Positions 5,505-42,030 of a DNA stretch of 64,000 bases are shown piece by piece (the stretch's first letter is position 1; the number at the start of each line of letters is the position of its first letter). Where the stretch lies: NCBI RefSeq assembly GCF_013122565.1, contig NZ_CP053258.1; one strand, 5' to 3'. Source of the DNA: Escherichia coli (GTDB lineage: Bacteria > Pseudomonadota > Gammaproteobacteria > Enterobacterales > Enterobacteriaceae). The notes beneath the pieces are model-generated. The model was given only the letters and a program-made list of their open reading frames with translations. It was not told where the DNA came from and did no database searches. The translations under genes and the position numbers were made by a program.

Positions 5505-6962
5505 ATGACAATAACTCCACAAAACCTGATCGCACTGCTACCGTTGCTGATCGTCGGCTTGACGGTGGTGGTTGTGATGCTCTCCATTGCGTGGCGACGC
5601 AATCATTTCCTCAACGCTACGCTCTCGGTTATTGGGCTTAACGCGGCGCTGGTTTCGCTCTGGTTTGTTGGCCAGGCGGGCGCTATGGACGTTACGCCGC
5701 TGATGCGCGTTGATGGTTTCGCCATGCTTTACACCGGGCTGGTATTGTTGGCGAGCCTCGCCACCTGTACTTTCGCCTACCCGTGGCTTGAAGGCTATAA
5801 CGACAACAAGGATGAGTTCTACCTGTTGGTGTTAATTGCCGCGCTGGGCGGGATCCTGCTGGCGAATGCCAACCATCTGGCGTCTCTGTTCCTCGGTATC
5901 GAACTGATCTCTTTGCCGCTGTTTGGCCTGGTCGGTTACGCTTTCCGCCAGAAACGTTCGCTGGAAGCCAGTATCAAATACACTATCCTTTCTGCCGCAG
6001 CGTCTTCTTTCCTGCTGTTCGGTATGGCGCTGGTGTATGCGCAGTCTGGCGACCTGTCGTTTGTCGCGCTGGGTAAAAACCTCGGCGACGGTATGCTCAA
6101 CGAGCCGCTGTTGCTGGCAGGTTTCGGCCTGATGATTGTTGGCCTTGGCTTCAAACTCTCTCTGGTGCCGTTCCACCTGTGGACGCCAGACGTATACCAG
6201 GGCGCGCCTGCGCCGGTTTCCACTTTCCTGGCGACGGCGAGCAAAATCGCTATCTTCGGCGTGGTGATGCGTCTGTTCCTTTACGCTCCGGTGGGTGACA
6301 GTGAAGCGATTCGCGTGGTGCTGGCGATTATCGCCTTTGCCTCTATCATCTTCGGTAACCTGATGGCACTGAGCCAGACCAACATCAAACGTCTGCTCGG
6401 TTACTCATCTATCTCTCACCTCGGCTATCTGCTGGTGGCGCTGATTGCGCTGCAAACGGGCGAGATGTCGATGGAAGCGGTAGGAGTTTACCTGGCCGGT
6501 TATCTGTTCAGCAGCCTCGGCGCGTTCGGCGTGGTCAGCCTGATGTCCAGCCCGTATCGTGGCCCGGATGCTGATTCCCTGTTCTCTTACCGCGGTCTGT
6601 TCTGGCATCGCCCGATCCTCGCGGCGGTGATGACGGTGATGATGCTGTCTCTGGCCGGTATCCCGATGACGCTGGGCTTTATCGGTAAGTTCTACGTGCT
6701 GGCGGTCGGTGTCCAGGCACACTTGTGGTGGCTGGTGGGTGCCGTGGTTGTCGGTTCGGCAATCGGCCTCTACTACTACCTGCGCGTGGCGGTGAGCCTG
6801 TATCTTCACGCCCCGGAACAACCGGGTCGCGATGCACCGTCAAACTGGCAGTACAGCGCGGGCGGTATCGTGGTGCTGATTTCTGCACTGTTGGTACTGG
6901 TGCTGGGTGTATGGCCACAACCGCTGATTAGTATTGTGCGTTTGGCAATGCCGCTGATGTAA
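5505..6962 (+). CDS. nuoN: NADH-quinone oxidoreductase subunit N (antiporter-like)
   Basis: 485-aa membrane protein; last gene of the nuo operon; followed by a hairpin plus T-run. Confidence 0.96.
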
Positions 6963-30200: not shown

Positions 30201-30743
30201 ATGAAAAAAATTGCGCTAGCAGGTCTGGTCGGAATGCTGTTGGTTTCTGCATCGGTCAATGCAATGAGCATCAGCGGTCAGGCGGGTAAAGAATACACCA
30301 ATATTGGTGTCGGTTTTGGGACTGAATCGACGGGTCTGGCGTTAAGCGGTAACTGGACACATAACGACGACGACGGTGACGTCGCGGGCGTGGGGCTGGG
30401 GTTGAATCTGCCTCTCGGGCCGTTAATGGCGACCGTTGGCGGAAAAGGCGTTTACACCAACCCGAATTACGGCGATGAAGGTTATGCCGCAGCGGTAGGA
30501 GGTGGTTTGCAGTGGAAAATTGGCAACAGCTTCCGTTTGTTTGGCGAGTATTACTACTCTCCGGATTCGCTCTCCAGCGGTATTCAAAGTTATGAGGAAG
30601 CGAATGCTGGCGCGCGTTACACCATTATGCGTCCAGTCAGTATTGAGGCGGGTTATCGCTACCTGAATCTGTCGGGTAAAGACGGTAACCGCGACAACGC
30701 AGTGGCTGACGGCCCGTATGTTGGGGTTAACGCCAGTTTCTGA
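30201..30743 (+). CDS. yfaZ: Small outer-membrane beta-barrel protein YfaZ
   Basis: 180 aa from MKKIALAG...; signal peptide ending SVNA; Gly/aromatic-rich barrel-like sequence ending in F. Confidence 0.8.
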   Translation: MKKIALAGLVGMLLVSASVNAMSISGQAGKEYTNIGVGFGTESTGLALSGNWTHNDDDGDVAGVGLGLNLPLGPLMATVGGKGVYTNPNYGDEGYAAAVGGGLQWKIGNSFRLFGEYYYSPDSLSSGIQSYEEANAGARYTIMRPVSIEAGYRYLNLSGKDGNRDNAVADGPYVGVNASF

Positions 30744-30842: not shown

Positions 30843-32045
30843 ATGTTAAAAGTGGAAATGTTATCCACCGGGGATGAAGTGTTACACGGGCAAATCGTTG
30901 ACACTAACGCTGCCTGGCTGGCCGATTTTTTCTTTCATCAGGGGTTGCCTTTAACTCGCCGCAATACGGTGGGGGATAACCTTGATGACTTAGTCACCAT
31001 TCTTCGCGAACGTAGTCAGCACGCCGATGTGCTGATCGTTAACGGCGGGCTGGGGCCGACCAGTGATGATTTAAGCGCACTCGCCGCTGCGACAGCAAAA
31101 GGTGAAGGCCTGGTGTTGCATGAAGCCTGGCTCAAAGAGATGGAACGCTATTTCCACGAACGTGGACGAGTAATGGCACCGAGCAACCGTAAACAAGCGG
31201 AGCTGCCTGCCAGTGCTGAATTTATCAATAATCCGGTAGGCACCGCCTGTGGTTTTGCCGTGCAGCTTAATCGTTGCCTGATGTTCTTTACCCCCGGCGT
31301 ACCGTCAGAATTTAAGGTGATGGTCGAGCACGAAATCCTGCCGCGTCTGCGCGAACGTTTTTCTTTACCACAGCCGCCGGTTTGTCTGCGTTTAACTACC
31401 TTTGGTCGTTCGGAAAGCGATCTGGCACAAAGCCTGGACACTCTACAACTGCCGCCGGGCGTAACAATGGGCTATCGCTCTTCAATGCCGATCATCGAAC
31501 TGAAACTCACCGGACCGGCAAGCGAGCAACAGGCGATGGAAAAACTGTGGCTGGACGTTAAACGTGTTGCCGGACAGAGCGTGATTTTCGAAGGTACCGA
31601 AGGATTGCCCGCGCAGATCAGCCGCGAATTGCAAAACCGCCAGTTTAGCCTGACGTTGAGCGAGCAATTCACCGGTGGTTTATTGGCTTTGCAACTTTCT
31701 CGCGCAGGTGCGCCGCTGCTGGCTTGCGAAGTCGTACCATCGCAAGAAGAGACACTGGCACAAACCGCCCACTGGATTACAGAACGGCGAGCCAACCATT
31801 TTGCCGGGTTGGCGCTGGCTGTTTCGGGTTTCGAGAACGAGCATCTCAACTTTGCGCTAGCCACGCCAGATGGCACTTTCGCTCTGCGTGTGCGTTTCAG
31901 CACTACACGCTATAGCCTGGCTATCCGTCAGGAAGTGTGCGCAATGATGGCACTGAATATGCTGCGCCGTTGGTTAAACGGCCAGGACATCGCCAGTGAG
32001 CATGGCTGGATTGAGGTTGTTGAGTCCATGACCTTATCCGTCTGA
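30843..32045 (+). CDS. yfaY: CinA-like protein YfaY (MoCF-biosynthesis-like N-domain)
   Basis: 400-aa translation MLKVEMLSTGDEVLHGQIVDTNAAWLA... typical of the CinA N-terminal domain. Confidence 0.85.
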   Translation: MLKVEMLSTGDEVLHGQIVDTNAAWLADFFFHQGLPLTRRNTVGDNLDDLVTILRERSQHADVLIVNGGLGPTSDDLSALAAATAKGEGLVLHEAWLKEMERYFHERGRVMAPSNRKQAELPASAEFINNPVGTACGFAVQLNRCLMFFTPGVPSEFKVMVEHEILPRLRERFSLPQPPVCLRLTTFGRSESDLAQSLDTLQLPPGVTMGYRSSMPIIELKLTGPASEQQAMEKLWLDVKRVAGQSVIFEGTEGLPAQISRELQNRQFSLTLSEQFTGGLLALQLSRAGAPLLACEVVPSQEETLAQTAHWITERRANHFAGLALAVSGFENEHLNFALATPDGTFALRVRFSTTRYSLAIRQEVCAMMALNMLRRWLNGQDIASEHGWIEVVESMTLSV

Positions 32046-32056
32046 TTCCGCCACTC

Positions 32057-32081
32057 TGTGCCGGTTTACTGCACCGGCACA
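32057..32081 (+). terminator. Perfect 9-bp hairpin after yfaY
   Basis: TGTGCCGGTttactgcACCGGCACA, 12 nt after the yfaY stop; no strong T-run. Confidence 0.5.
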
Positions 32082-32264
32082 TTCCCCCTCCGGCAAAATT
32101 TGTCCAACCTGTTGTACTCAATAAGAAAAAATCCGTGCGCTGATTCACAAATTTGTGCGTAATTTCTCCAGTCCGTTGGACGAGGAGCGGGATTTGATGC
32201 GCTTCACAATTTTACTCCCCCTGAGCAACGAGACTGATTCCAGTATCTAAGACTGGAGTCCAGT

Positions 32265-33047
32265 ATGTTGGAATCAAGCAAAGTTCCCGCCCTGACACGG
32301 GCTATTGATATTCTCAATTTGATTGCCCGCATTGGCCCCTGTAATGCTGCGACGATCATTGACACATTGGGGATCCCTAAAAGCACGACCTATTTGCTGC
32401 TTAATGAACTCAGGCGTCAGCGTTTTCTTAGCCTTGATCACCAGGAAAATTTTTGTTTGTGGACCAGGCTGGTGGAGCTTTCCGGTCATGCGTTAAGCAA
32501 GATGGATCTCCGGGAACTGGCTCGACCGCGTTTGACGCAACTGATGGATACCACCGGGCTGTTATGTCACCTGGGGATTATTGATAACGGCAGCGCTTAT
32601 TACATTTTAAAAGTGGAGTCATCAGCCACTATCAGCGTGCGTTCCCATGAAGGAAAAAGCCTTTCGCTTTATCGCTCCGGAATAGGTAAATGCCTGCTTG
32701 CCTGGCAACCTGCAGCGGTACAGCAAAGTATTATCGAAGGGCTGGTCTGGGAGCAGACGACACCCACAACGATTACTCATCCACAGCAACTTCACGAAGA
32801 ACTGGCGCGTATTCGCCGTCAGGGCTGGAGCTATGACAACGGCGAAGATTACGCCGATGTCCGTTGTGTCGCTGCGCCGGTGTTTAACGCCAATAACGAG
32901 CTTACCGCTGCGATCTCGGTGGTCGGTACCCGCTTACAAATCAATGAAGAATACCGTGATTATCTGGCGGGCAAGGCCATTGCCTGCGCCAGGGATATTT
33001 CACGTCTGTTGGGATGGAAAAGTCCCTTTGACTTACAAGCCTCATAA
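32265..33047 (+). CDS. rhmR: IclR-family transcriptional regulator of L-rhamnonate utilisation
   Basis: 260 aa; N-terminal wHTH, C-terminal IclR effector domain; heads the rhm cluster. Confidence 0.85.
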
Positions 33048-33061
33048 CAATGGAGAACATC

Positions 33062-34267
33062 ATGACCCTACCAAAAATTAAACAGGTTCGCGCCTGGTTT
33101 ACTGGCGGTGCGACAGCAGAAAAAGGCGCTGGCGGCGGTGATTATCACGACCAGGGGGCGAATCACTGGATAGACGATCATATTGCCACCCCGATGAGTA
33201 AATACCGCGATTACGAGCAGTCACGCCAGTCATTTGGCATTAACGTTCTTGGCACGTTGGTTGTTGAAGTCGAAGCAGAAAACGGCCAGACCGGATTCGC
33301 TGTTTCGACAGCCGGTGAAATGGGCTGTTTTATCGTCGAAAAACACCTTAACCGTTTCATTGAGGGTAAATGTGTCAGTGATATCAAACTGATCCACGAT
33401 CAAATGCTCAATGCCACCCTGTATTACTCCGGCTCTGGTGGCCTGGTGATGAATACGATTTCCTGTGTCGATCTGGCTCTGTGGGATCTGTTCGGCAAAG
33501 TGGTTGGGCTTCCGATTTATAAACTTTTAGGCGGCGCTGTTCGTGATGAGATTCAGTTCTACGCCACAGGTGCGCGTCCGGATCTGGCAAAAGAGATGGG
33601 CTTTATCGGTGGCAAAATGCCGACGCACTGGGGGCCACATGATGGCGATGCGGGGATCCGCAAAGATGCCGCTATGGTCGCGGATATGCGTGAAAAATGC
33701 GGTGAGGATTTCTGGTTAATGCTCGACTGCTGGATGAGTCAGGACGTGAACTATGCCACCAAACTGGCCCACGCTTGCGCGCCCTATAACCTGAAATGGA
33801 TCGAAGAGTGCCTGCCGCCACAGCAGTATGAAGGTTATCGCGAACTGAAACGCAACGCCCCAGCGGGGATGATGGTCACCAGTGGTGAGCACCACGGCAC
33901 ACTGCAATCTTTTCGTACGCTTTCAGAAACCGGTATCGACATCATGCAGCCGGATGTTGGCTGGTGCGGTGGCTTAACCACGCTGGTGGAAATTGCCGCA
34001 ATCGCCAAATCCAGGGGGCAACTGGTGGTGCCGCACGGTTCGTCTGTTTACTCCCACCATGCGGTGATCACCTTCACCAATACGCCATTCAGTGAATTCC
34101 TGATGACCAGCCCGGATTGTTCAACGATGCGTCCGCAATTTGATCCGATTCTGCTTAATGAGCCGGTTCCGGTGAATGGTCGTATTCATAAATCAGTGCT
34201 TGATAAGCCCGGTTTCGGCGTCGAACTCAATCGTGACTGCAATTTGAAACGCCCCTACAGCCACTAA
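33062..34267 (+). CDS. rhmD: L-rhamnonate dehydratase (enolase superfamily)
   Basis: 401 aa from [12 protein letters not shown]... with RBS GGAG. Confidence 0.9.
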
Positions 34268-34323
34268 TCACTCCGGGCGTTGCTGTGAGAACGGTAATGC
34301 CCACATATTCTAAGGAGCTTTTT

Positions 34324-35613
34324 ATGAGCACCGCTTTGCTTGACGCCGTGGTGAAGAAAAACCGTGCGCGTTTAATTCCGTTTATGTTGGCGCTGTATGT
34401 GCTGGCGTTTCTCGACCGTTCGAATATTGGTTTTGCCAAACAGACCTACCAGATTGATACCGGGCTGAGTAATGAAGCTTATGCGCTGGGAGCAGGCATT
34501 TTCTTTGTGGTATACGCGTTTCTGGGGGTTCCGGCGAATCTTTTGATGCGAAAACTGGGGGCCAGAACCTGGATTGGTACGACAACACTGCTGTGGGGAT
34601 TTCTTTCGGCAGCCATGGCATGGGCCGATACTGAAGCGAAATTTCTGATTGTTCGCACTCTGCTTGGTGCTGCGGAGGCTGGGTTTTTCCCTGGTATGAT
34701 TTATCTCACCTCGCAATGGTTTCCGCAGAGTAATCGCGCCAGCATTATGGGGCTGTTCTATATGGGCGCACCGCTGGCGTTAACACTGGGATCACCGCTT
34801 TCTGGCGCGCTGCTGGAGATGCATGGATTTATGGGGCATCCCGGCTGGTTCTGGATGTTTGTGATTGAAGGATTGTTGGCAGTCGGCGCTGGGGTATTCA
34901 CATTCTTTTGGCTTGATGACACACCGGAGCAGGCACGTTTTCTGAGTAAACAAGAAAAAAAGTTGCTTATCAATCAACTGGCAAGTGAAGAACAACAGAA
35001 AGTGACTTCCCGAATGAGCGATGCGCTGCGTAATGGGCGAGTCTGGCAACTGGCGATTATCTACCTGACCATTCAGGTGGCGGTTTACGGATTAATTTTC
35101 TTCTTGCCGACCCAGGTTGCTGCATTGCTGGGGACAAAAGTGGGCTTTACGGCGTCGGTGGTCACCGCCATTCCGTGGGTTGCTGCCTTATTTGGGACCT
35201 GGCTTATTCCGCGCTATTCCGATAAAACCGGCGAACGGCGTAATGTCGCAGCGCTGACATTACTGGCGGCGGGCATTGGTATTGGTCTGTCCGGGCTGCT
35301 TTCTCCAGTAATGGCGATCGTAGCGCTGTGTGTTGCAGCCATCGGGTTTATTGCCGTGCAGCCGGTGTTCTGGACGATGCCGACACAACTGCTTTCCGGT
35401 ACGGCGCTGGCTGCGGGGATTGGTTTTGTAAACCTGTTTGGTGCAGTGGGCGGGTTTATTGCCCCGATCCTGCGCGTGAAAGCAGAAACGTTATTTGCCA
35501 GCGATGCGGCGGGATTACTGACGCTGGCAGCGGTGGCGGTCATCGGTTCGCTGATTATTTTCACTCTGCGTGTATATCGTACTGTTGCGCAGACCGATGT
35601 GGCACATCATTAA
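34324..35613 (+). CDS. rhmT: MFS L-rhamnonate transporter
   Basis: 429 aa from [10 protein letters not shown]... with RBS AAGGAG; 12-TM MFS. Confidence 0.87.
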
Positions 35614-35630
35614 ATAGGTTAAGGAACACG

Positions 35631-36434
35631 ATGAACGCATTATTAACCAATCCCTTTAAAGAACGTTTACGCAAGGGCGAAGTGCAAATTGGTCTGTGGT
35701 TAAGCTCAACAACTGCCTATATGGCAGAAATTGCCGCCACTTCCGGTTATGACTGGTTGCTGATTGACGGGGAGCACGCGCCAAACACCATTCAGGATCT
35801 TTATCACCAGCTACAGGCGGTAGCGCCCTATGCCAGCCAACCCGTGATCCGTCCGGTGGAAGGCAGTAAACCGCTGATTAAACAAGTCCTGGATATTGGC
35901 GCGCAAACTCTACTGATCCCGATGGTCGATACTGCCGATCAGGCACGTCAGGTGGTGTCTGCCACGCGCTATCCTCCCTACGGTGAGCGTGGTGTCGGGG
36001 CCAGTGTGGCACGGGCTGCGCGCTGGGGACGCATTGAGAATTACATGGCGCAAGTTAACGATTCACTTTGTCTGTTGGTGCAGGTGGAAAGTAAAACGGC
36101 ACTGGATAACCTGGACGAAATCCTCGACGTCGAAGGGATTGATGGCGTGTTTATTGGACCTGCGGATCTTTCTGCGTCGTTGGGCTACCCGGATAACGCC
36201 GGGCACCCGGAAGTGCAGCGAATTATTGAAACCAGTATTCGGCGGATCCGTGCTGCGGGTAAAGCGGCTGGTTTTCTGGCTGTGGCTCCTGATATGGCGC
36301 AGCAATGCCTGGCGTGGGGAGCGAACTTTGTCGCTGTTGGCGTTGACACGATGCTCTACAGCAATGCCCTGGATCAACGACTGGCGATGTTTAAATCAGG
36401 CAAAAATGGGCCACGCATAAAAGGTAGTTATTGA
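35631..36434 (+). CDS. rhmA: 2-keto-3-deoxy-L-rhamnonate aldolase (HpcH/HpaI family)
   Basis: 267 aa from [13 protein letters not shown]...; the longer track ORF (35328) is an out-of-context extension overlapping rhmT. Confidence 0.9.
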
Positions 36435-42008: not shown

Positions 42009-42030
42009 ATGTGTGCGGCAATTCACATTT
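42009..42030. promoter_or_regulatory. CRP binding site in the glpA-glpT intergenic region
   Basis: aatGTGTGCggcaatTCACAttt (TGTGN-N6-TCACA, one mismatch to consensus). Confidence 0.65.

Follow-up and report, generated by a model that had tools for sequence, protein, structure and literature searches.

The spacer between yfaY and rhmR of Escherichia coli raises the question of whether a perfect palindrome within it is an operator, either of the IclR-type regulator RhmR acting on its own gene or of a global regulator, as a preliminary description had proposed. The question was addressed in a window of 64 kb (64,000 nucleotides, the whole stretch of DNA analysed, to which all coordinates refer). 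The window region is 99.8% identical to E. coli strain EC1515. The palindrome and the genes around it are as follows.

30843..32045, + strand: yfaY (CinA-family), the upstream gene, from the annotation.
32057..32081, + strand: hairpin TGTGCCGGT-ttactgc-ACCGGCACA, with a perfect 9-bp stem and no T-run.
32146..32157, no strand: perfect 12-bp palindrome CACAAATTTGTG, the major E. coli allele and not a conserved unit.
32265..33047, + strand: rhmR (yfaX), IclR-family regulator, first gene of rhmR-rhmD-rhmT-rhmA, from the annotation.
33062-34267, + strand: rhmD, from the annotation of the 99.8% identical NZ_CP021844.1.
34324-35613, + strand: rhmT/yfaV, from the same annotation.
35631-36434, + strand: rhmA/yfaU, from the same annotation.

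The genes served by the rhm regulatory region are rhmD, rhmT and rhmA (33062..36434). The upstream edge of this region is the hairpin, which lies 12 nt past the yfaY stop codon; the equivalent place in other genera holds unrelated GC-rich hairpins, some of them with T-runs.

The palindrome is real. CACAAATTTGTG lies inside the interval first noted (32140-32160), with its axis at 32151.5, and is a single copy in the window. It is contained in the 219-bp spacer and its last base is 107 nt from the ATG of rhmR, so that both its assignment to the yfaY-rhmR spacer and the distance given for it, about 110 bp upstream of rhmR, were right. It is also statistically ordinary in a window of 64 kb. Perfect 12-bp palindromes number 13 in the window, whereas base composition predicts 15.6 and shuffled windows contain 16.0 +/- 3.9. 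CACAAATTTGTG cannot be extended beyond 12 bp, being flanked by T and C, and of the other 12 palindromes nine reach 14 bp and one reaches 16 bp. The expectation for the 219-bp spacer alone is about 0.05, but the choice was made from 64 kb. Likewise, the perfect 6+6 inverted-repeat symmetry suits a helix-turn-helix dimer, but the frequency of such symmetry is at chance. As a separate observation, longer palindromes are mildly over-represented window-wide (nine extend to 14 bp, vs 3.9 palindromes of 14 bp expected, and one to 16 bp); an example is ACACCAATATTGGTGT at 30295-30310, inside yfaZ.

Phylogenetic footprinting, the check proposed along with the preliminary description, went against the palindrome. 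We aligned the window with 20 orthologous rhmR loci (21 sequences), whose RhmR proteins are 70-97% identical to that of the window and which are non-independent samples. The loci came from E. coli, E. albertii, Citrobacter, Klebsiella, Kluyvera, Trabulsiella, Kosakonia, Phytobacter, Atlantibacter, Mixta, Cedecea, Pantoea and Prodigiosinella. The exact palindrome was found in none of the 20 orthologous loci. At the aligned position, all six base pairs form in the E. coli of the window and in K-12 MG1655. One base breaks the palindrome in another E. coli (…TTTGTA), and one in E. albertii (…TTTATG), so that pairing is 5/6 in both; in Citrobacter it is 1-3/6, and in the other genera the segment differs in both sequence and length. 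By column, C32146 and C32148 do not vary, whereas the bases opposite them in the palindrome, G32157 and G32155, have an information score of 0 on a scale of 0-9 (about 0 bits). Judged from this alignment, the sequence is not maintained as a palindrome and its left arm alone is conserved. Within the species, 3,977 complete E. coli genomes retain the region, and 3,686 of them have an identical 52-mer around the palindrome. The rhm spacer as a whole is 95-100% identical within E. coli; the identity of the 52-mer is therefore expected and is little evidence of selection.

These results bear directly on the proposal that the palindrome is an RhmR operator. RhmR has the Pfam domains HTH_IclR (residues 9-58) and IclR_C (residues 75-247), and its recognition helix, IPKST.YL.L.E, is nearly invariant across the 21 sequences. 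Therefore, an operator of RhmR should be conserved as well, and the palindrome is not. A genuine autoregulatory operator could have arisen in Escherichia only. Such an operator would agree with the perfect symmetry, the appropriate spacer and the status of major E. coli allele, and autoregulation is common in the IclR family, according to a review cited in PMC11778176. However, the palindrome is absent from all the orthologous loci despite the nearly invariant helix, and single-base changes break it as close by as another E. coli and E. albertii. It also lacks the GT.C...G.AC frame of the XynR operator, whereas three better conserved sites with this frame are found in the same spacer (O1-O3, described below). 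We therefore give an Escherichia-only operator next to no chance, even if conservation alone leaves room for a species-specific role of a sequence that is the major E. coli allele. The RhmR of the window itself differs from that of K-12 by S27N, A42T and A164T; residue 42 lies in the recognition helix of the HTH and is A in 18 of the 20 others, V in K. indica and L in Cedecea.

The conservation of the left arm has an explanation of its own: TCACA (32145-32149) forms the right half of a CRP-type box that is itself conserved.

32134..32149, no strand: distal CRP-type box (CRP1), CGTGC-gctgat-TCACA, centre 32141.5.

In E. coli, CRP1 has two mismatches to TGTGA-N6-TCACA (CGTGC for TGTGA) and is thus a weak match, with G4 and C13 present; these are the positions that matter most to CRP (Shimada et al., PMC3105977). 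A box with 0-3 mismatches to the CRP consensus occupies the aligned position in 21/21 sequences. It reads TGTGC-N6-TCACA in most species and is a perfect consensus in Prodigiosinella (TGTGA-agttgt-TCACA). The two halves of CRP1 carry 1.38 and 1.62 bits vs 0.24 bits for the 6-bp spacer between them, the whole rhm spacer averaging 1.10 bits. As far as an alignment can tell, this pattern of half, free spacer and half is the signature of a dimer site. CRP-like sites with <=2 mismatches are not in excess in the window (22 found vs 26 expected by chance), and therefore the case for CRP1 rests on its conservation. The same scan returned, as an internal positive control, a 1-mismatch box, TGTGCGGCAATTCACA at 42012-42027, which is the published CRP site of glpTQ/glpABC.

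We consider it probable that the palindrome is a by-product of this conserved CRP-type half-site, in a spacer whose conserved regulatory elements would be two CRP-type boxes, a putative weak -10 and the O-sites. The left arm would be the right half-site of the distal box, and the unconstrained A/T-rich flank would, in Escherichia, happen to read AAATTTGTG, which completes the 12-bp palindrome. The CRP1 block resembles a CRP box in its two 5-bp halves, free 6-bp spacer, G4/C13 and A/T-rich flank. In contrast, the palindrome reads TCACA...TGTG, with the order of the half-sites reversed. The idea of a global regulator thus held in part. The left arm CACA does fall within the TCACA of a conserved CRP-type box, and the spacer is a target of cAMP-CRP in vitro (Shimada et al. 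2011, PMC3105977). However, the box is centred at 32141.5, 10 bp further upstream than the axis of the palindrome, and the right arm, with G32155 and G32157, is unconserved; the palindrome itself is not the site.

Three other accounts of the same bases were weighed. First, the arms of the palindrome could be halves of two adjacent CRP-like sites, occupied by dimers side by side in E. coli. TGTGC at 32154-32158 is a good left half, and the resulting centre would be 20 bp from that of the distal box. However, the site so formed (TGTGC-gtaatt-TCTCC, 32154-32169) has three mismatches and is not among the hits with <=2 mismatches, its TGTG is unconserved, and its TCTCC is part of the conserved O2. 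We regard this arrangement as highly improbable. Second, the TGTGC-N6-TC(A/G)CA block could be bound by a different factor, or extend the RhmR sites, rather than be a CRP box; the palindrome would still be incidental. Several genera have TCGCA instead of TCACA, Kosakonia and Phytobacter have TGCGT on the left, and the block occupies the exact midpoint between O1 and O2, just after an unusually conserved A-tract, GAAAAAATC. Against this stand G4 and C13, kept in nearly all species, the perfect consensus of Prodigiosinella, and the in vitro binding of the spacer by CRP (PMC3105977), and a target for a factor other than CRP is, in our estimate, unlikely. Third, both the palindrome and the distal box could be non-functional sequence. 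Both are at chance by match count. However, a half/free spacer/half pattern set against an average of 1.10 bits and kept in 21 sequences, from Escherichia to Pantoea and Prodigiosinella, makes this quite improbable. The CRP-type half-site remains our preferred origin of the left arm.

Downstream of the distal box, the spacer contains a second CRP box and a putative promoter element.

32193..32208, no strand: proximal CRP box (CRP2), TTTGA-tgcgct-TCACA, centre 32200.5, one mismatch.
32230..32235, + strand: candidate -10 hexamer GAGACT (nAnACT), with A, A, C and T invariant in 21 sequences.

The TCACA of CRP2 and the GA of its left half are invariant in the 21 sequences. CRP2 is the reverse complement of TGTGAAGCGCATCAAA, which Shimada et al. 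2011 (PMC3105977, Table S4) give as the box of yfaXWVU; unlike CRP1, it is thus the published box. In the genomic SELEX of cAMP-CRP, the yfaXWVU-yfaY spacer was recovered as a clone and on the chip (PMC3105977). The boxes in that study were assigned by a motif search within 500 bp of the peak, and therefore the SELEX neither backs nor excludes CRP1. The centres of the two boxes are 59 bp apart, a non-integral number of helical turns. GAGACT may be a weak -10 with a start near 32242, which would place CRP2 at about -41.5, in a class II arrangement. Counted from this putative start, the approximate positions would be -68.5 for O2, -100.5 for the distal box and -132.5 for O1, with O4 and O3 covering +1 to +32. 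A consensus scan found no strong sigma-70 promoter (none at 9 of 12 matches), an absence to be expected of an activator-dependent promoter.

Several further readings of the spacer were tried and discarded. TTCACA (32144 or 32203) as a -35 has no usable -10 at 16-18 bp. CACAAT (32205-32210), taken as a -10 on the model of the yjhI layout, is CACAAA in most species; the essential final T is missing there, and the CRP reading of this block was therefore kept. The direct repeat TTCACAA(A/T)TTT (32144 and 32203) is not a separate element, as it corresponds to the right halves of the two CRP-type boxes. For Fis, IHF and Cra, inspection by eye against the consensus sequences gave nothing convincing, and the bases concerned are unconserved. 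At the RNA level, the spacer had no Rfam match at E <= 1, no fold of unusual stability compared with shuffles (z = 0.09) and no terminator-like site on the + strand. A peak (34%) in the SELEX of the RpoN holoenzyme maps to the rhm spacer (PMC8743547). No acceptable sigma-54 motif accounts for it: the best one, TTGGACAAATTTTGCC (- strand, 32107..32092), has three mismatches to TGGCAC-N5-TTGCA (GG-N10-GC) and a GG/GC spacing that is off by one, and the window contains 175 sigma-54-like sites as good.

The sites that would suit RhmR lie elsewhere in the spacer.

32102..32117, no strand: O1, candidate RhmR operator GTCCAAC-ct-GTTGTAC, a 7-2-7 inverted repeat with a mean of 1.68 bits.
32166..32181, no strand: O2, candidate RhmR operator CTCCAGT-cc-GTTGGAC, core TCCA-N6-TGGA.
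32238..32253, no strand: O4, a possible degenerate fourth site, TTCCAGT-at-CTAAGAC, weak and 20 bp upstream of O3.
32258..32273, no strand: O3, candidate RhmR operator GTCCAGT-at-GTTGGAA, which spans the rhmR start codon, with a mean of 1.81 bits.

O1, O2 and O3 share a plan of 16 bp, GTMCARY-NN-RYTGKAC. O1 is near-fixed at -162 to -164 from the ATG in 21/21 sequences and is perfect (GTACAAC-NN-GTTGTAC) in the three most distant species, Prodigiosinella, Cedecea and Pantoea. It is also kept in Mixta, Prodigiosinella and Cedecea, where the upstream gene is not yfaY, and therefore belongs to the rhm side. The strict core of O2 is found at -98 in 14/21 sequences; the site is degenerate in Trabulsiella and Atlantibacter, and missing from the three most distant species. 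The core of O3, TCCA-N6-TGGA, is at -6 in all of the 21 sequences, and Cedecea and Pantoea keep it despite an ATG that lies 3 nt further on; O3 shares bases with the Shine-Dalgarno sequence and the first codons, whose conservation also has other causes. O4 has an invariant TTCCA and, in its right arm, an invariant GA, yet only two to four of its seven positions pair. The core T[AC]CA-N6-TG[GT]A, found at -162/-164, -98 and -6, is nearly absent from the rest of the 6.8-kb loci. In the 64-kb window there are six matches vs 3.8 +/- 2.0 in shuffles, three of the six falling within 170 bp here; the pattern is post hoc, having been defined on the same alignment used to count it. With this reservation, O1-O3 are palindromic, conserved together with the regulator and repeated in the regulator's own promoter. 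From these features and from the related systems considered below, O1, O2, O3 and perhaps O4 are likely candidates for RhmR operators. A literature search for binding data or sites of RhmR/YfaX found none.

How these elements could work together can be outlined. CRP would occupy the distal box, and CRP at the proximal box would give activation of class II type. RhmR would bind O1-O3. At O2 it might be an activator, like YjhI at the yjhI promoter, and at O3/O4 a repressor, like XynR, which acts over a -10; the two roles could also be combined. O2, O4 and O3 lie 64, 136 and 156 bp from O1, roughly on one helix face, and between O1 and O2 stands CRP1, at the same distance (32 bp) from both. It may be speculated that a bend induced by CRP helps one RhmR tetramer to bridge O1 and O2. 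The combined proposal, that O1-O3 are a so far undescribed RhmR operator, that the GT.C...G.AC frame is common to the sugar-acid branch of the IclR family, and that a CRP bend assists bridging of O1/O2 by a tetramer, seems to us rather doubtful as a whole. If true, the bridging would couple catabolite control and inducer control in the architecture of the promoter, and the palindrome would be uninvolved.

Two further observations concern the locus. A deletion of 3,864 bp (window 32110-35973) is present in about 1,440 of 5,418 complete E. coli genomes, for example NZ_CP068591.1; the junction reads ...TTGTCCAAC|CCTCCCTACGG, with a microhomology of 1 bp. The deletion takes the O1 right arm, all of the regulatory region, rhmR, rhmD, rhmT and codons 1-114 of rhmA, and its left end coincides with the centre of O1. 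In addition, a LexA ChIP-chip signal has been reported at yfaX/yfaW, with a degenerate LexA-like site, ATATGATCGTCTATCCAGTG, proposed for it (PMC3542263). This sequence maps to 33164-33183 on the - strand, in the 5' part of rhmD.

The palindrome at 32146-32157 is one more chance palindrome and should not be annotated as an operator; binding assays with RhmR would be better aimed at O1-O3. As a by-product, the analysis maps, in testable form, a hitherto uncharacterised promoter of E. coli, which has a published and an unlisted CRP-type box and three to four candidate RhmR boxes.

A close parallel in layout is the mhp promoter, which, in work by Torres et al. in 2003, was reportedly found to be co-dependent on the IclR-type MhpR and CRP. 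It resembles the layout proposed for rhm in having the palindromic site of a local IclR-family regulator interleaved with CRP sites and a weak promoter downstream. It differs in that rhm would have two CRP-type boxes and three to four candidate regulator sites, one of them over the start codon, all recognised from sequence.

Among the paralogous systems, XynR (YagI) and YjhI offer the closest comparison. XynR is a repressor and YjhI an auto-induced activator, and their effector is 2-keto-3-deoxy-xylonate (PMC13279387). Since this effector is a 2-keto-3-deoxy intermediate, the ligand of RhmR may, by analogy, be 2-keto-3-deoxy-L-rhamnonate rather than L-rhamnonate. According to the same 2026 paper, XynR and YjhI still await characterisation of their consensus sites (PMC13279387). 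At the yagE promoter, the single SELEX target of XynR, we independently found GTTCTA-N5-TAGAAC over the -10. This palindrome is the XynR box of Shimada et al. 2017 as cited in PMC11778176. For XyrR of Serratia sp. ATCC 39006, EMSA demonstrated binding to a box of this kind (PMC11778176). O1-O3 share with the XynR box, and with the yjhI palindrome described below, the outer GT.C...G.AC frame and the design of a palindromic dimer site. They differ from the XynR box in length (16 bp, 7-2-7, vs 17 bp) and in the inner bases (GTCCA/GTACA vs GTTCT).

The K-12 yjhI operon has the regulator-first layout of rhm, and its promoter is likewise a published in vitro CRP target, with the box TGTGTACAAGATCACA (PMC3105977). 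Upstream of yjhI, about 70 bp before the ATG, we found a perfect 16-bp palindrome, GTTCAGC-at-GCTGAAC (at about 6867-6882, - strand, of the segment 4519000-4529000 of NC_000913.3), which is a candidate YjhI operator. It lies 34 bp downstream of the published CRP box, and the corresponding distance from CRP1 to O2 in rhm is 32 bp. In Phytobacter, O2 itself (GTCCAGC-at-GCTGGAT) comes near the yjhI palindrome. By their sequences, the half-sites GTTCTA (XynR), GTTCAG (candidate for YjhI) and GT[C/A]CA[A/G] (rhm) form a family, and the palindrome at 32146-32157 stands outside it, lacking the GT.C...G.AC frame seen both in the XynR box and upstream of yjhI.
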